A DNA stretch of 64,000 nt from the sequence record NC_054928.1, one strand, 5' to 3'. This document shows, piece by piece, positions 7,744 through 58,014 of this stretch; the stretch's first letter is position 1, and every line of letters begins with the position of its first letter. The notes under the pieces were generated by a model that saw only the letters and a list, made by a program, of their open reading frames with translations, was not told where the DNA came from and ran no database searches. The translations under genes were made by a program, and so were the position numbers. Origin of the DNA: Escherichia phage vB_vPM_PD112.

Positions 7744-9921
7744 TTAGGCCGCAAGGGCCTTCATAGTTTTAGCGATTTGGGAAACTTCATCATCACTTAA
7801 AGAGTTGCGATATCCGATGAAGTCGGAAACAATACGGAATTTCTTGGTAAACTCAGCAACCATTTTATCACTGTTTTTTGAAGCATTATTTGATAATACA
7901 TCAAAAAGATTAGTTACTGTCCAGATGTCATGACCGATGGTATCTCTTCCACCGTTGAAATATACACCCTGTAATGAACTAACCATATTAGCAAGTCGTG
8001 TATATTCTTCAGAAACTTCATCTACACTGAAGTACTTCATCATAAAATCTAGTTCAGGATACTTAATAATTTTATCAATATATCGTTTAGCTGAACTTGA
8101 ATAACCTACATACTTATCATAATCTACAGCATCAAAAGCATCTACATATAAATCACGCAGAGTTTCAAAAATACATTGGCACTGACCAAGTTCTTTTACC
8201 TTTTTCTGCAAAAGCGGACGAATAACATAAAATTCATTAATGCCAATAAGATTCGCCATACGAGTCAAAATATTCGTAGATGGATGACAAAGCGATGTAG
8301 TACCATCCATAGAGAAAATATCAGAACGATGCATGTATGCTACATAACCAGTAATTTCATCTGCTTCTGATGTGAGCGTAAACAGTTCCTCTTTTTCCCA
8401 ACGCCCGTCTTTAATTTCAAACTTAAATGCAGTAGCAGTTTTAGGACGAGGAGCTGTACTTTTTACTGCCTTTGGAATATAACTTTTAACTAAAGCTTCA
8501 ATTTCTGACAAATAATGAATGTTAACTTCATCACTTTCAAACATTGCCATAATATCAGGGAGTAAATCAATCTGCGATTCTACTTCCGGATTAATAAACA
8601 GAAGACGCTCATTGTGATGAATATTCAAAGTGTTATTAAATTCACTATCATCTAATGCACGTGCTAATCCACGGACAATATTAACACGATTTTTAATATT
8701 ATCAATAACGATATTAATTTTTGTTGTGTTAATACCAAACAGACGATAACTTGATGCAACGGCTGAAGTTTCATGGCTTTGCTTAATGCGTTTCAGTCGA
8801 GGGTCAAGATTTACTTCATACACAACTCCTGCATTGCATAACTTACTGTCAGGTTCAAACATGCTCTGCATCTTTTTATATGACAGATTTTTAGTCGTGA
8901 ATTTGACTGAATTACTAATCATATAATCTCGAGCAGAATACCCCATCTTCATCAATTCACGGTATGTGTGACGAGGAGATGTAGATTCTTTAAATCGTTT
9001 TACATCTTCATTAAATGCCTGCTCACTGAGCTCTTTAACTCGTTCAATAATATTTTTACGAGTACGATCATCTAGTGAAAGAGCTTCACGTGATGGAGCA
9101 ATATCAAGTGAACCCATTGGAAACTTAATGTAATTCACTTCATTACGAATGCTTAACCAGTTACGATCTCTAATAACACCTTCGATAGGATAAACAATGC
9201 CGCCATAGATAGCATATAATCCACCACGATCTGGCCAGTATCTTTCTGGATTTACACCGTAATAGTCATCAAAATCCGGAAAATAATCAATTTCGCGATC
9301 AAGACCATTAATGATAGCCAAATCTTTAAATGGTCGCATGATATAAGAAACTTCATAAGCAAAGTTTCTAAAGTCTTTTTCTTCAACTGGAACTACGATT
9401 TCAATACCAGTTTTATCGTTTGGACCCATTTCTTTTACGAATGTAGGTTTAATCTGTGGACCATCACCATCCATGTAAGCTACATAACCACGAATTTCGC
9501 CTTTATGATATGAAGTGATACTAAACGTATCAGTATAACTAAACGGAGATTTAGAACCTAAACCAAATCCACCAATGAAATCATTAGATTCAGCCTTAGA
9601 TGAACTGAAGTATGAATTATACAACCCAGGAGAATTATCATCACCCTGAATATCAAAATCGCTCATACCCGGACCAAAATCTCGACAAACAAATCGCGGA
9701 TCTAATCGTCCTGGAACTTGAATGATAAATTTTTCAGGATTTCCATTAAGAGCATGGGCATCAATCATGTTGGTAATCAATTCACGGACTACTGCGCGAA
9801 TCTTGTTTGTATACAAATCAGATGATAGAATTTTAAATACTTTAGGAGATGCTGTGATGCTAAATGCTTTTGATTTAGAACCATTACCAAGAATTGTTTC
9901 TTTTTCAGTGGTGATAATCAT
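7744..9921 (-). CDS. rIIA: rIIA protein (GHKL-type ATPase domain)
   Basis: 725 aa, the T4 rIIA length; N-terminal histidine-kinase-like ATPase motifs. Confidence 0.95.
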
Positions 9922-9931
9922 AATTTCCTCA

Positions 9932-10135
9932 TTAATTCATATTGCGTTTAATAACTTCAACAACTTCTAGTAGTTCATCTTTAGTTGCGGTGTCGGATTG
10001 AATTTTATCTCTAATATCCTTAAAGCGGTTTTTAAACTCTTCAGCTTCTCCCATATCGAAAAAGCGTTGAATGATTCTATATTCTCGATGAACTGCTTTA
10101 TCAAAAAGTTCTAAATTTACTTTGTATGATTTCAT
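9932..10135 (-). CDS. rIIA.1: hypothetical protein, 67 aa
   Basis: Track ORF between gene 60 and rIIA; own early promoter at 10161-10190. Confidence 0.6.
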
Positions 10136-10160
10136 TTCAATATCCTCATTTGCTCAATTA

Positions 10161-10190
10161 ATTATACCACATCCTTGTGGTAAAGTAAAC
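10161..10190 (-). promoter_or_regulatory. T4-early-type promoter
   Basis: Minus strand GTTTACT (plus 10184-10190), 17 nt, TATAAT (plus 10161-10166); -35 abuts the gene 60 stop codon. Confidence 0.75.
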
Positions 10191-19637: not shown

Positions 19638-19666
19638 ACTATAACATTTTTACTTCAGCTTGTAAA
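19638..19666 (-). promoter_or_regulatory. T4-early-type promoter upstream of the srd-like gene
   Basis: Minus strand TTTACA (plus 19661-19666), 17 nt, TATAGT (plus 19638-19643). Confidence 0.6.
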
Positions 19667-19679
19667 CAACTTTATGAAA

Positions 19680-27662: not shown

Positions 27663-27691
27663 ACTATAACACAACTCTATCAGCTTGTAAA
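27663..27691 (-). promoter_or_regulatory. T4-early-type promoter
   Basis: Minus strand TTTACA (plus 27686-27691), 17 nt, TATAGT (plus 27663-27668). Confidence 0.65.
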
Positions 27692-27715
27692 CTACTATTT
27701 TACTAGCATCAATAA

Positions 27716-28150: not shown

Positions 28151-28179
28151 ACTATACCATAGTCTTGTCAGCTTGTAAA
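28151..28179 (-). promoter_or_regulatory. T4-early-type promoter upstream of dmd
   Basis: Minus strand TTTACA (plus 28174-28179), 17 nt, TATAGT (plus 28151-28156); palindrome CAAGACT..AGTCTTG spans the -10. Confidence 0.65.
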
Positions 28180-29607
28180 CTAAAATTTTAATTCATTTGC
28201 CAAAGCATCTAACTGAGCTCGAGTCGATTCGTTTCTTTGATAGCGATTCTGTTCAGCCTGAATCTGTTGTGAACCTGCTACTTCACTCACTTCAGTTGGA
28301 GTAGAATCTTGTTCAATTTCTACCCATTTCTGATTTCCTTTTTGAACACCCATCAAAAACTTATTCCATTTATTCTTATCACCATATCGTGATTTGATTT
28401 GCTTAATGAGTTGTTGTTCAGCAGCTGCTAGCTCCTCGGTTTCAATGACCGCAAGCATAAAATCAGCTGTCGCTGGAAGACCAGCAGATTCTGCAATATC
28501 GCTCATGTTAACATCAGAAGAATCCCAAGCTTGTTTACCAACCTGTGCTGCAGTCCAAAGAACAGTTTCGGTTTCAACAGCCAGAGCACGCAATTCTTCT
28601 GCAATAGCTTTAACAGTTGTGTAACTATTTTCTGAATAAACTCTAATGCGGCAAGATTTACAAATACCTAGATAGTCGACAATAATGATTGTTGGAACAA
28701 AATTCTTCTTGAGCTTCAATTCATTCAAGAGAGACCTGAATGTGTTAGCATCTGCTCCACCAGTAGGATACTGTTTAACGATTAAACGACCAAGAGTAGA
28801 TTTCTCACGCCATTTTTCCATTTTTCCTTTATACTCAGCGTAAGAAATATGCCCATCATCAATGTCATCAAGAGAAACATCGAGCATATTAGCGTCAATA
28901 CGTTTAGCACAGACTTCTTCTGCCATTTCCATGGAAATGTAAAGAACATTATGACCGAGCTGTAAATAATCTGCTGCCAATGAACACAATCCTAATGACT
29001 TACCAACGTTAACACCAGCCATTAAAACGTTCAGTGTTCCAGTCTCAGCTCCGCCTTTAGTAATTTTGTTTAGAATTCTGAGTTTAAATGGAACCTTACG
29101 AGCTTTATTCATATAAGATAGCCAACGTGCTTCGTAGTCATCCATCCAATCATGACCAACGTAACTATCAAATGAAATTGATAATGCTTGACGCATAATG
29201 TCAGGAATAGCACCAACATCCGGCATTTTCTTATTTCGTTTTTCCGGAGGAAGCTCAGCATTAGTTTGAATTTCGATTATTTTAGACGTAGCATTAAACA
29301 TCGCCCTTTGCTGAACATATTTTTCTGTTTCTTTTACTAACCAGCTGTGGTCTTCCGGAGAATCAGCTAGTTTTGAAATAAGTGTTTTTACACCAGAATA
29401 TTCTGTTTCAGTAAATGAACTATTTTCTAATGCAACATTTAACGCATTAATAGATGGAACGCTATGGTACTCATTAACATGAGATTTAATTAATTTGAAT
29501 GTATTTTTAGCTGGACCACTTTCAAAATATTCTGAATCCATATATGGCCAAACTTTTGAAAAATAAGCTTGATCAAATATGAGATGAGAAAGAATAATTT
29601 CTACCAC
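28180..29607 (-). CDS. 41: replicative DNA helicase (DnaB-like)
   Basis: 475 aa, the T4 gp41 length; start codon is GTG with SD AAGGAG 6 nt upstream. Confidence 0.95.
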   Translation of the reverse strand: MVEIILSHLIFDQAYFSKVWPYMDSEYFESGPAKNTFKLIKSHVNEYHSVPSINALNVALENSSFTETEYSGVKTLISKLADSPEDHSWLVKETEKYVQQRAMFNATSKIIEIQTNAELPPEKRNKKMPDVGAIPDIMRQALSISFDSYVGHDWMDDYEARWLSYMNKARKVPFKLRILNKITKGGAETGTLNVLMAGVNVGKSLGLCSLAADYLQLGHNVLYISMEMAEEVCAKRIDANMLDVSLDDIDDGHISYAEYKGKMEKWREKSTLGRLIVKQYPTGGADANTFRSLLNELKLKKNFVPTIIIVDYLGICKSCRIRVYSENSYTTVKAIAEELRALAVETETVLWTAAQVGKQAWDSSDVNMSDIAESAGLPATADFMLAVIETEELAAAEQQLIKQIKSRYGDKNKWNKFLMGVQKGNQKWVEIEQDSTPTEVSEVAGSQQIQAEQNRYQRNESTRAQLDALANELKF

Positions 29608-34217: not shown

Positions 34218-34246
34218 ATAGTACCATGGAATAACAGGGATGTAAA
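34218..34246 (-). promoter_or_regulatory. T4-early-type promoter
   Basis: Minus strand TTTACA (plus 34241-34246), 17 nt, TACTAT (plus 34218-34223). Confidence 0.7.
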
Positions 34247-34330
34247 CAGTTTTGTGAAAAAATTTTTAGGGAATCCAAAGGGTCCAGAATCATCTCTTTT
34301 TCATAAGTATAGATTTATATTACTTGTATG

Positions 34331-34351
34331 AAAAAGGGACCTGGAGGTCCC
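34331..34351 (-). terminator. intrinsic terminator after gene 43
   Basis: Minus strand GGGACCUCCAGGUCCC followed by UUUUU, 14 nt past the polymerase stop. Confidence 0.7.
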
Positions 34352-54315: not shown

Positions 54316-54575
54316 TTAAAGTATTCCCGCAATTGGTCAAATCCACCAATATGACTTCCATCAGGAGCAAATACTTGTGGCATTGTCAAACCAATTTGAG
54401 TATCACGACCTAGTTTCGTCAGAAGCTCAGCGATTTTCTCATCATCAAAAACACCTTTTTCCGGCATAATATTGATAAATTCAAACGGCTGTTTCTTCAC
54501 AGTCAAAAGACGTTTTGCATTATCGCAATACACACATTTGTGTATGTTGCTATCATAACCATATACTTTAAACAT
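54312..54575 (-). CDS. nrdC: thioredoxin (NrdC)
   Basis: 87 aa with CVYC active site; T4 NrdC length. Confidence 0.85.
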   Translation of the reverse strand: MFKVYGYDSNIHKCVYCDNAKRLLTVKKQPFEFINIMPEKGVFDDEKIAELLTKLGRDTQIGLTMPQVFAPDGSHIGGFDQLREYFK

Positions 54576-54643
54576 ATTATTCCTTAATTCCTAATACTTG
54601 TTTAAAAGTCTCGTCGTAATCAAGACTTTGGCCCGTTTGTTCT

Positions 54644-54817
54644 TTATGTTTGTATAATATCACTTACTTCTGATAGCATATTTTTATATGAACGAGTTAA
54701 AGCTGATTTAAGCACGCTGTATCTATCAGGAAATTTACCATGTTCATTATAATAAGCTATTGCTAATTCACGGACTGCCTTTTCAGCAGTCTCCATATAT
54801 TCTTTACGCTTGGTCAT
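54644..54817 (-). CDS. hypothetical protein, about 57 aa
   Basis: Track ORF trimmed from TTG to first ATG. Confidence 0.4.
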
Positions 54818-55121
54818 TTTCTTCTCGGTTAAATCGGTGTTTGCAATGACGACATTTATATTCAAGCTCTGGTTTACGCCAGTTAATCAATTGGACCTGT
54901 TCAGTACCACATTTTGGGCAGTTCGGAACATTCTTAGAAGCCCTTTCGCGGCGTTCAACCATAACCATAATGGCATCCCAAGCAGGAGGTTTAAAGTCTA
55001 GATCGTCACAGCCATGAATCTTTCCACGCATTTCCAGATCGTCTTCTTCACCAGCCATAATGATTTTAATTAGACTGGAATTACTTGAAGCTGCAATATC
55101 TTCTAATAGACGCTTTTTCAT
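54804..55121 (-). CDS. zinc-finger protein, 105 aa
   Basis: Two CxxC pairs (CPKCGTE, CRHCKH); ATG start. Confidence 0.5.
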
Positions 55122-56044
55122 TTCAATACCTCAATAGCATTACGTAAACCATTTGCTTTTGCATTAAGAGCTTTTAACAATTTGGTATGTTCGGCAATCT
55201 GGACTTCAACTTCAATCAAACGAGCATTGAGATATTCGCGTTCTTCGCTCAAGTTATCAATCTTTTCTACTTTAGGTTCTTTTACAACTGGCTTATATGT
55301 ATTAGGGTTCTTCAGTTTAATTAGAATGCGTGAACTGTATAACATTGAACCATTATCTTCGGTTTCATCATACATTTCCACTACGTCCATCATCTCCACC
55401 ATCGTGCAGAGTTTATAAGACAGCGAACGAATAGTTTTGTTATGCTTATTAATTTCTCTAGCTGTCATGGTGCCGAGATTACGTGAGTAATAATAAGGAA
55501 CCTGGATATTAATTAATACTGATGAACCACCTGGCTTGTGTGTTACTTCATCAGCAATAACCCAGTCCTTAACATGAACTGTATTTGTACGGTCATCGCC
55601 CGCGGTAAATAGTTTACGAGCATGCTTAAAAAGCATATTCACTTGGTCATTGAATTGACAAGCGAATTTATCAGCAAATTTAGTTTCAGGAATGGTAGAT
55701 AACCAATCAGCTAAATGGGTCTTTTTAACATCGTTAACAATAGTAAATTCAACCAAATCGGTTATAGATGTCGCAGTTTTAATGAATCTCGGCTTCATAA
55801 AGTTTTTAATGTTATCGCGAGCTACAGTAGAAGATAACAGACGAGAACGTTTAAACCATTGAAGCAAATTGCCTAACGAATGAGAATAAGCGTTTTGAGT
55901 ATCTTTACAGATATGATTTTCCTGGCCAACATATTGAAGGAAATCACGAAGAATATTATTGATTACTGCTCTGTGCCCAATCTGATAATTACGGTGTTTA
56001 GTAATAAGACTGTCAAAATAATCAATATAATGTTTACGAGTCAT
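55118..56044 (-). CDS. hypothetical protein, about 308 aa, C-terminal coiled coil
   Basis: Track ORF trimmed to ATG MTRKHYID with SD GGAG, downstream of promoter 56073-56101. Confidence 0.5.
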   Translation of the reverse strand: MTRKHYIDYFDSLITKHRNYQIGHRAVINNILRDFLQYVGQENHICKDTQNAYSHSLGNLLQWFKRSRLLSSTVARDNIKNFMKPRFIKTATSITDLVEFTIVNDVKKTHLADWLSTIPETKFADKFACQFNDQVNMLFKHARKLFTAGDDRTNTVHVKDWVIADEVTHKPGGSSVLINIQVPYYYSRNLGTMTAREINKHNKTIRSLSYKLCTMVEMMDVVEMYDETEDNGSMLYSSRILIKLKNPNTYKPVVKEPKVEKIDNLSEEREYLNARLIEVEVQIAEHTKLLKALNAKANGLRNAIEVLK

Positions 56045-56072
56045 ATTAATCTCCTCAGTAGAAAGTAAGAAC

Positions 56073-56101
56073 ATTATACCACATCCTTGCGGCAAAGTAA
56101 A
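56073..56101 (-). promoter_or_regulatory. T4-early-type promoter, near-copy of the one at 10161-10190
   Basis: Minus strand TTTACT (plus 56096-56101), 17 nt, TATAAT (plus 56073-56078); 28 of 30 nt identical to 10161-10190. Confidence 0.7.
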
Positions 56102-57115
56102 CTAGTTCAGTGCATTTAGTGCATTGTTCAGTTTAGAACGTTGCTTCGTGAGATTTTTGACTTTTTCTTGAGCTTTTTCTAACATCTTTTCAGCTTCTAA
56201 CACTTCATTAGTTGCTTTAACGAGTTCATCATCTACTGCCTTAAGAGACTTCTCAATCGCGTCAGCGTGCCATTTTTCTACAGGTTTAAAATTTGAATTT
56301 TCAGTAGGAAGAAAATTCACTTTATTGAATTTCCATGCATTTTTATTACCTGAACTATACATCCAAAATTTAGGATCGTTTGATAAGTAATTGGATAAAT
56401 TTAAATTTAAGTTATCTTGCACTTCCTGCTTTTTCTCTTGCGTGACTTCGTCCTTTCTCAAAAAATCGTATTTAAATGAAACGATCATATCAAGTTCATA
56501 TGTTGTGTCTAAGAAATGCTGTGAAATCTTAGACTGAACAGCGGCAACAACATCCATATACTTAAATGCTTCTGTCAACTGCGATTTAAGGCATTCACAA
56601 ATTGAAAGAGAATTTTTTGTATTAGGTTTAAAGCTAATTCGTGCAGTTCTATTATTTTCTTTTAATGGTCTTACTTCCATCTGAAGAGTATAACCATCAA
56701 ATTTCAGATTCTTTAAGTTAATATCAGAACCTTTCAATCGACTCGCAGTTGATAAAATTTGTTTTAATTGTTTACGGAATAGAGCAATAAATCTCCATTC
56801 AAGACGATAATGATTTGGATTAAAAAATCCTGTTGATAAATCGACCTTACTTTGACCAACGCCTTGAACAAATAGAGGATTTTTATAATCAATAGTTTTA
56901 CAGAAATCGGTGAGCTGCTCACGAGCCGTCATTTGCGTAATATACCCTGCTTCGCTAAAATTACGCACCCATTCACTGCTATTCGTATACTTAAAGTGAT
57001 GAATAACACGATTAACTTTATCAGGGTCTAAATTATTTTCACACAAAAATGTCATAACATCACGAGTATAACTGGCATTACGAACCATATCTTCAATTTG
57101 AGAACGAGTTTTCAT
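56102..57115 (-). CDS. hypothetical protein, 337 aa, C-terminal coiled coil
   Basis: Track ORF, ATG start. Confidence 0.55.
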   Translation of the reverse strand: MKTRSQIEDMVRNASYTRDVMTFLCENNLDPDKVNRVIHHFKYTNSSEWVRNFSEAGYITQMTAREQLTDFCKTIDYKNPLFVQGVGQSKVDLSTGFFNPNHYRLEWRFIALFRKQLKQILSTASRLKGSDINLKNLKFDGYTLQMEVRPLKENNRTARISFKPNTKNSLSICECLKSQLTEAFKYMDVVAAVQSKISQHFLDTTYELDMIVSFKYDFLRKDEVTQEKKQEVQDNLNLNLSNYLSNDPKFWMYSSGNKNAWKFNKVNFLPTENSNFKPVEKWHADAIEKSLKAVDDELVKATNEVLEAEKMLEKAQEKVKNLTKQRSKLNNALNALN

Positions 57116-57123
57116 GGTGTTCC

Positions 57124-58014
57124 TTAAGATTTAAGTAAATCAACAATTTTAATTAACTTTTCACGCTCAGATTTAGCTTTACTACTCAATCCAGATAGTC
57201 TGAAAATTTCATCGTCATATTGTTGAATAGAAATATTCAGCTCTTCAATTTGCTTATTAAAATAATCAATTTGTTCAGAATGTTTTTCGTTACTACGAAC
57301 TGGTACAGGTTTTGTAGGCAATTTAGTTGAACTGGATTCATCCGGGCGATAAATTAAAATACAACTTGAACCAATCGGACATTTAGCACCAGACACATAT
57401 TCTAATGTTCCGGCTTCTTTTAAAACTTCAAAAGCTAAACAGAGATGATGACCCATATTGGCATAATCTGTAGAGTGAGCTCTGATGTAATAATCATCTC
57501 CACGAGTACTAAATTTAAAGCATTTAAGGTCTTCTGTATTATTGGTCTTAAAAATCATTTGTTTATCTAGACCTTTAGCTAATCGAGCGCCTAATGCTAA
57601 TAATCGTCGTTGATTTTCCCACAAATCCGCAATCATTTGGTCAAATGATAATTTCGGCATTAGTCGACCATAAAGGTCATATCCTTTATTATAATTACGA
57701 AGGATTTCACTCGCATTAATACGAGACAACGCTCCAATTTTATTAAGGGCTTTCATAATGCGATTAGATAAACTCATTCCAGACCCGTTTGGTCGCTGTA
57801 AATGTTTTTCTAATCCAAATCCAATATCAACTTTAAACTTATCTAAAATTTCGGCATGAACATCTTTATCAATAACATTCAAATCCAAAGTTGGGTTAAA
57901 TCTATGAAAAAATTTATCTGGCTCTCCACGACGAAATACAGTCCATTCATTCATCATTTTTTTATTAACTAAAGATTTAATTACTGTATTGACATTATTA
58001 ATTACTACTGACAT
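57124..58014 (-). CDS. hypothetical protein, about 296 aa
   Basis: Track start is GTG; first ATG gives MSVVINNV... Confidence 0.5.
   Translation of the reverse strand: MSVVINNVNTVIKSLVNKKMMNEWTVFRRGEPDKFFHRFNPTLDLNVIDKDVHAEILDKFKVDIGFGLEKHLQRPNGSGMSLSNRIMKALNKIGALSRINASEILRNYNKGYDLYGRLMPKLSFDQMIADLWENQRRLLALGARLAKGLDKQMIFKTNNTEDLKCFKFSTRGDDYYIRAHSTDYANMGHHLCLAFEVLKEAGTLEYVSGAKCPIGSSCILIYRPDESSSTKLPTKPVPVRSNEKHSEQIDYFNKQIEELNISIQQYDDEIFRLSGLSSKAKSEREKLIKIVDLLKS

Follow-up and report, generated by a model that had tools for sequence, protein, structure and literature searches.

PeSL (promoter-early stem-loop) cassettes have been described in T4-like phages (Arbiol 2010, PMC2839356; Comeau 2014, PMC4122927). 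In phages PST and T4, their promoter has the form TTTACW-N17-TAYWAT and is preceded, just upstream of the -35 element, by a stem-loop that is often G/C-rich and has been shown to terminate transcription (PMC2839356, PMC4122927). The cassettes are linked to indels in hyperplastic regions and have been proposed to spread and recombine via short homology (PMC2839356, PMC4122927). Recombination between copies of such a cassette would yield indels or mini-circles. T4 early promoters in general are characterised by a -35 element GTTTAC and a -10 element TAnnnT placed 18 bases apart (TTTACW-N17), a GT-rich or TGn element (gtgg) upstream of position -12, an A/T-rich UP element between -40 and -60, and a correctly oriented early gene, whose Shine-Dalgarno sequence and ATG follow within about 30 bases; unmodified host RNA polymerase initiates the primary transcript at once after infection. 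Operators can also be accommodated within phage promoters, as in the case of OL1 in the PL promoter of lambda, which has a half-site TACCAC, and MerR-type operators are placed in promoter spacers. Here, two nearly identical early promoters of a T4-like phage were compared with these systems.

The window (a stretch of 64,000 nucleotides from Escherichia phage vB_vPM_PD112, NC_054928.1) belongs, by its sequence, to a Tequatrovirus, with the genes at both loci of interest on the minus strand. The closest record was that of Escherichia phage vB_EcoM_CE1, with 99.7-100 % identity in the segments sampled. A preceding sequence-only reading had reported a promoter 30-mer that recurs in the window with 28 of 30 positions identical, and self-comparison of the window confirmed this value for the two sites, hereafter copy A (ATTATACCACATCCTTGTGGTAAAGTAAAC) and copy B (ATTATACCACATCCTTGCGGCAAAGTAAAC; Table 1). 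The reading had assigned copy B to the gene 60 - rIIA.1 junction in its title; this junction holds copy A, and copy B is located in the nrdC cluster. The match extends by two further bases (the TA of the TAG stop codon) to 30 of 32 positions, beyond which the flanks are unrelated, with background identity on both sides. Because identity ends in this way, the copies represent a short shared element, so that the description as 'duplicated' holds for the repeat itself but not in the sense of a segmental duplication, which was ruled out as their source. The window contained only these two sites when searched with up to three mismatches, and no such match was obtained in 100 dinucleotide-preserving shuffles of the window, indicating that the repeat did not arise by chance. 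The copies are separated by 46 kb, with essential genes in between. In T4 itself, they agree at 29 of 30 positions.

Table 1. Features of the two promoter loci and further junctions carrying the subfamily core (positions refer to the window unless another source is named).
Feature	Position	Strand	Correspondence or remark
Copy A, early promoter before rIIA.1	10161-10190	-	T4 2429-2458
Copy A -35 element, GTTTAC	10185-10190	-	sequence
Copy A -10 element, TATAAT	10161-10166	-	sequence
Copy A extended -10 element, TGG	10167-10169	-	sequence
Copy A dyad, TACCACA-AGGA-TGTGGTA	10165-10182	-	7 perfect pairs, within spacer, overlapping -12/-11
Gene 60 TAG stop codon	10190-10192	-	T4 2458; its G begins the -35 element GTTTAC
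rIIA.1 (67 aa), first gene downstream of copy A	9932-10135	-	ATG at T4 2403; GAGGA Shine-Dalgarno sequence at 10143-10147
rIIA, next gene after rIIA.1	7744-9921	-	
Copy B, early promoter (T4 nrdC.4 promoter, 'early promoter 50.0')	56073-56102	-	NC_000866 50944-50973
Copy B -35 element	56097-56102	-	sequence
Copy B -10 element	56073-56078	-	sequence
Copy B dyad, TGCCGCA-AGGA-TGTGGTA	56077-56094	-	2 pairs G.T (G.U in sense RNA) from A-to-G at 56093 and 56090
nrdC.5 homologue	56102-57115	-	TAG stop codon 56102-56104 overlaps -35 just as at copy A
nrdC.3 homologue fused to first nrdC.4 codons, gene behind copy B	55118-56044	-	ATG 56042-56044, GAGGAG 56051-56056
nrdC.4 deletion junction, in ACTCGTAA microhomology	56034-56041	-	
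Junction after DNA polymerase gene 43			Jiaodavirus KPV15; Winklervirus Vettismorki; Serratia phage 92A1
Junction after helicase gene 41, before sp			IMG/VR contigs
Junction before cef			IMG/VR contigs
Junction after alt, before alt.-3			Dhakavirus IME281
Before DEAD-box helicase gene	2502-2531 of contig L016		Salmonella phage rivia, Rosemountvirus, 52.6 kb, unrelated; 27/30; GTATACTTTACCACAAGGAAGTGGTATAAT

Both copies show the features of T4 early promoters. They share the arrangement GTTTAC-N18-TATAAT with a TGn extended -10 element, reading TGTGG immediately before TATAAT. On the sense strand, copy A reads cagTAG·TTTAC·TTT·ACCACAAGGATGTGG·TATAAT, followed by 25 bases that include GAGGA and then by an ATG (rIIA.1, ATG at 10135), and copy B reads aacTAG·TTTAC·TTT·GCCGCAAGGATGTGG·TATAAT, followed by 28 bases that include GAGGAG and then by an ATG (nrdC.3/4, ATG at 56044). 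A sigma-70 consensus scan called both as TTTACT-17-TATAAT with TG before the -10 element and a score of 10/12. The sequence-only reading had considered both to be perfect -10/-35 early promoters. They do fit the T4 early consensus, and both are annotated, but their -35 element is perfect only against that consensus and matches TTGACA at 4 of 6 positions. An A/T-rich UP element or A-tract was not obvious between -40 and -60 at either copy, because the coding sequence of gene 60 or nrdC.5 extends to the -35 element; other early promoters in the window have aaaaagtt upstream.

Public annotations agree with this assignment. The T4 record U76612 gives -35 and -10 signals at the site of copy B under the name 'early promoter 50.0', and the record of phage SA21RB lists the same site as 'promoter', similar to the T4 early promoter GTTTAC(N14)gtggTAttaT, with reference to Miller 2003. 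The site of copy A (2429-2458) is annotated as 'predicted early promoter' in the record of Yersinia phage fPS-65, where the preceding gene is an unsplit topoisomerase. The interpretation as early promoters is supported in this way, with the predicted promoter activity being based on consensus and public annotation, and as two annotated T4 early promoters, copies A and B are already known in kind and in instance. They resemble other T4 early promoters in their GTTTAC -35 element, their spacing, the GT-rich TGn element, the -10 element and the orientation before early genes. The difference lies in the spacer, which is outside the consensus and over nearly the whole of which the two copies agree.

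The surroundings of copy B differ from those in T4 by the deletion of nrdC.4, a gene of about 1 kb in T4. The deletion begins 30 bases downstream of copy B, and its junction (ATGACTCGTAA followed by ACATTAT) falls into an 8-base coding microhomology that is common to the 5' ends of nrdC.4 and nrdC.3, two distant paralogues with 24 % identity (E = 0.001). Because nrdC.4 is deleted, copy B now drives nrdC.3 instead. This arrangement was found in about 25 of 642 matching phage records. Although the deletion is close to the promoter, the position of its junction in coding microhomology indicates that it was not made through the promoter. Over 3.3 kb around this site (54418-57708), the window differs from CE1 at three positions (56090, 56093 and 56429), two of which (56090 and 56093) correspond to the 5'-arm A-to-G changes of the copy B dyad; these two arm changes could be due to selection, to a hot spot or to short-patch conversion. 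The copy B allele of the window (TTTGCCGCA) had no match among 50,697 phage records.

The gene behind copy B is annotated differently in the CE1 record (ON229909), which labels the entire nrdC.x series 'thioredoxin' and puts the gene start at the ATG in TATAATG (window positions 56072-56074), that is, within the -10 element itself. The mechanical open reading frame of this gene stays open across the promoter as far as 56095. As a lesson for annotation, the CE1-type start codon inside TATAATG is an error; the credible start is the ATG at 56042-56044 with its preceding GAGGAG. On the other side of copy B, the 3' end of nrdC.5 (56106-56126) contains a tandem 9-base repeat (AATGCACTA AATGCACTG, sense strand) that encodes NAL-NAL just before the stop codon and the -35 element. 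A terminator scan flagged a G.T-dependent stem at this 3' end, on the plus (antisense) strand only (56108-56126).

The agreement of the two spacers was compared with that of other promoters by aligning the spacers of the 15 early-promoter-like sites that the window has on its minus strand (105 pairs). Mean identity was 6.1 of 18 positions (sd 2.45), the next best pair shared 11 positions, and copies A and B shared 16, which places them 4 sd above the other promoter pairs. The core of the subfamily that they represent reads GTTTAC-N3-RCCAC-AAGGAN-GTGGTA and is present two to three times per genome. In 308 phage records, copy B had the T4-type G allele (TTTGCCACA). About 54 records appear to carry the A form at both sites, and thus identical copies, as estimated from 481 records with 535 places and from individual records such as RB51 and AR1. 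A second spacer subfamily in the window (GTTTAC-aagctga...-TATAGT) comprises minus-strand sites at 28151-28180, 27663-27692 and 19638-19667, which agree with one another at 11 of 18 spacer bases. The junction after gene 41 has an ACCAC-type promoter in other genera, where the window has one of the GTTTAC-aagctga...-TATAGT subfamily.

A BLAST search with the 32-base sequence matched 785 phage records, mostly at two places each. At least five genera of Straboviridae carry the subfamily core at junctions that are not orthologous, and a single occurrence was detected in a Rosemountvirus (Table 1); one further contig carried the core form with a slightly altered loop. In KPV15, two copies agree also in the upstream A-tract and the leader. 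The orthologous gene 43 junction of the window contains a terminator and then an early promoter with an unrelated spacer; spacers are therefore exchanged between junctions and not conserved by position. At this junction, the downstream side of gene 43 has a G/C-rich hairpin with a T run (GGGACCTCCAGGTCCCTTTTT; 34331-34351, minus strand), and the early promoter GTTTAC-N18-TACTAT lies about 85 bases after the hairpin (34218-34247, minus strand), before a lipoprotein-like open reading frame. This terminator-then-promoter layout is far closer to a PeSL than copies A and B are.

Among 24 distinct variants of the subfamily, positions -27 to -11 were nearly invariant and positions -30 to -28 and -10 to -8 varied. 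This conservation partly reflects ascertainment bias, because the core served as seed for the searches; at the positions left free by the search pattern, A was present in 24 of 24 variants at -22 and in 22 of 24 at -21. Conservation from -27 to -11 exceeds the normal need of a promoter spacer, which leaves room for an additional function. An A/G dimorphism at -27 is common to Tequatrovirus and Jiaodavirus. A broader pattern (GTTTACTT-N16-TATAAT) mostly matched unrelated contigs and was uninformative. In the marine IMG/VR contigs L330, L337, L338 and L340, which derive from uncultured T4-like phages, TTTAC-N3-ACCAC-aata(a/g)t-GTGGTATAAT precedes gp32-like genes; these promoters have the same arms and register as copies A and B and a different loop. 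The mildly new point is that, judging by these comparisons, copies A and B belong to a spacer-conserved promoter subtype common to several genera.

The subfamily motif was found neither in E. coli chromosomes nor in 185,579 bacterial and archaeal genomes. The only E. coli matches were in two 'plasmids' of about 53 kb each (NZ_CP067310 and NZ_JBVNBN010000003), covering query bases 2-32 at 93.5 %, the same coverage and identity as the Rosemountvirus matches; both may be Rosemountvirus-type phage genomes. With 0 matches in the bacterial and archaeal genomes, a host promoter or a site of a host regulon was ruled out.

The spacers of both copies had been reported to carry a CCACA..TG(T/C)GG dyad. 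This dyad is present and longer than claimed, forming 7 pairs on the sense strand (TACCACA-AGGA-TGTGGTA), and it overlaps the TGn element and positions -12/-11. The two differences between the copies are both A-to-G changes in the 5' arm of copy B, so that the symmetry of the DNA is perfect in copy A and reduced to 5 of 7 pairs in copy B. Folding of the sense RNA gave -8.2 kcal/mol for copy A (z -2.4) and -7.8 kcal/mol for copy B. The antisense RNA of copy B reached only -2.5 kcal/mol, because the sense strand alone turns both changes into G.U pairs. For the most part, the dyad is probably a by-product. The 3' arm GTGGTA coincides with the T4 early consensus in general, which leaves the 5' arm RCCAC as the part peculiar to the subfamily. 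Pattern scans in which either the arms or the loop were left free detected no compensatory changes, and when the loop was fixed and both arms were free, or the 5' arm alone was left free, every match in a promoter context was ACCAC or GCCAC. The outer and inner pairs of the dyad are lost in other genera, where the stem is down to 5 pairs.

Spacer dyads were also counted in a sample of 129 unselected TTTAC-N14-GTGGTATAAT promoters from viral contigs, scoring stems of at least 5 pairs with GTGGTA against column-preserving shuffles. The sample contained 6 such dyads, compared with 2.15 ± 1.4 in the shuffles (8 of 500 shuffles reached 6). As this enrichment is weak, a general rule that phage promoters of this type carry a spacer dyad was dropped. 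With 3 G-C pairs, the dyad is not an intrinsic terminator in the sense of a G/C-rich hairpin followed by a U tract. A simple terminator scan left copy A unflagged and flagged copy B by its lax rule only (tail TAATGTTCTT). One IMG/VR contig (641509422, L176; 170,523 bp) contains the 17-mer ACCACAAGGATGTGGTA about 517 bases from its reverse-complement start, between a TAA stop codon and GGAGG-N5-ATG, without a usable -35 or -10 element; this occurrence could represent a cassette that has been truncated or a case in which the hairpin is used independently of a promoter.

Compared with PeSL cassettes, copies A and B are similar in that an early promoter repeated in the genome fills the space from stop codon to ATG, and copy B adjoins an indel, the nrdC.4 deletion. 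They differ in that their dyad is weak, lies inside the spacer and lacks a U tract, and no terminator stem-loop is found upstream of their -35 element. The deletion junction, too, lies in the coding microhomology and not in the promoter. The position and type of the stem-loop ruled out a canonical PeSL. As in lambda OL1 and MerR-type promoters, the dyad is placed between the -35 and -10 elements, and its half-site TACCAC recurs in lambda OL1; it is unlike lambda operators in spacing and register, and the spacer has the optimal length of 17 bp, in contrast to the 19-20 bp of MerR-type promoters. To our knowledge, none of the E. coli regulator sites of the DnaA, NrdR, CRP, GalR and FadR types fits the dyad in spacing or orientation.

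We consider it likely that copies A and B are two sigma-70-dependent, T4-type early promoters of one conserved subtype, whose near identity reflects subfamily membership brought about by cassette spread and selection. Each copy fills a minimal intergenic cassette composed of an upstream TAG overlapping GTTTAC, an 18-base spacer ending in TGG, a perfect TATAAT element, a Shine-Dalgarno leader of about 20-25 bases and an ATG. Unmodified host RNA polymerase would presumably start about 7 bases beyond the -10 element, right after infection, and the re-initiated transcription would enter rIIA.1-rIIA and nrdC.4 (here nrdC.3). The near identity would then be that of a subfamily, GTTTAC-N3-RCCAC-AAGGAN-GTGG-TAnnAT, at varied gene junctions across Straboviridae genera. 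Its most likely reason would be that short promoter cassettes are spread and homogenised by short-homology recombination of the phages, and selection for a strong promoter may keep them in place. Independent convergence on an optimal early-promoter sequence, without common origin or exchange, would account for GTTTAC, the TT that follows, the CC near -26/-25 and gtggTATAAT, all of which are common to other early promoters in the window. It is nevertheless very unlikely, given that the non-consensus spacer positions are identical as well, that the pair stands 4 sd apart from the others, that the same 17-mer and loop are found again at no fewer than eight unrelated junctions as well as in an unrelated genus of phages, and that the agreement of the two KPV15 copies continues into the upstream A-tract and the leader.

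Two further explanations attribute a role of its own to the dyad, for which the evidence is weak. On read-through transcripts from gene 60 or nrdC.5, it could act as an RNA hairpin 6 bases past the stop codon, serving as a 3'-end barrier, a processing mark or a weak attenuator, in effect a compacted PeSL. The contrast between the sense folds and the antisense fold of copy B, the fact that all arm substitutions seen are A-to-G changes giving G.U on the sense strand, the flagging of copy B by the simple terminator scan and the promoterless 17-mer between a stop codon and a Shine-Dalgarno sequence are consistent with such a hairpin. Any transition in the 5' arm is wobble-compatible, however, which makes the substitution pattern weak evidence, and the short, A/U-rich stem, the lack of a U tract and of a flag at copy A, the lack of compensatory changes, the 5-pair stems of other genera and the weak enrichment of dyads in generic promoters render this role quite improbable. 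Alternatively, the palindrome (T)ACCAC-N6-GTGGT(A) could be an operator bound by a dimeric phage or host protein that switches a few early promoters on or off, perhaps as part of the T4 early shut-off, for which PMC2988021 leaves the strategies unexplained. A core that is nearly invariant between genera while adjoining promoter positions vary, a dyad of 16-18 bp placed where repressors occlude RNA polymerase and the presence of only two to three copies per genome argue for this function. The 3' arm, however, is plain early-promoter consensus, the arms do not covary and are always ACCAC or GCCAC with GTGG, the symmetry of the DNA is broken by the T4 allele that is common at copy B, and more so by that of the window (5 of 7 pairs), and other genera have not retained the outer and inner pairs. 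The motif is also carried by an unrelated Rosemountvirus, in which a T4 regulator would be missing, the absence of the motif from bacterial genomes excludes a host regulon using the same form, and there is no known candidate protein; an operator is thus highly unlikely.

As early promoters of a conserved subtype, copies A and B mainly confirm textbook biology, in which strong early promoters re-initiate transcription inside the long T4 early units. It is unlikely that the 17-base block from -27 to -11 (RCCACAAGGATGTGGTA) is functional in its own right, be it as an operator for a regulator or as an RNA hairpin by which the upstream message is marked at its 3' end. If it were, it would define a small, separately controlled set of two to three early promoters per genome, conserved over five or more genera of Straboviridae and borrowed by a Rosemountvirus, and could be relevant to the way in which T4 early transcription is shut off. 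With the subfamily core, a defined motif is available with which individual regulation of early promoters can be tested. The finding that T4-type early promoters form spacer subfamilies, and that one of these has been carried almost unchanged to other junctions, other genera and an unrelated phage supports the view that short promoter cassettes are units of exchange.
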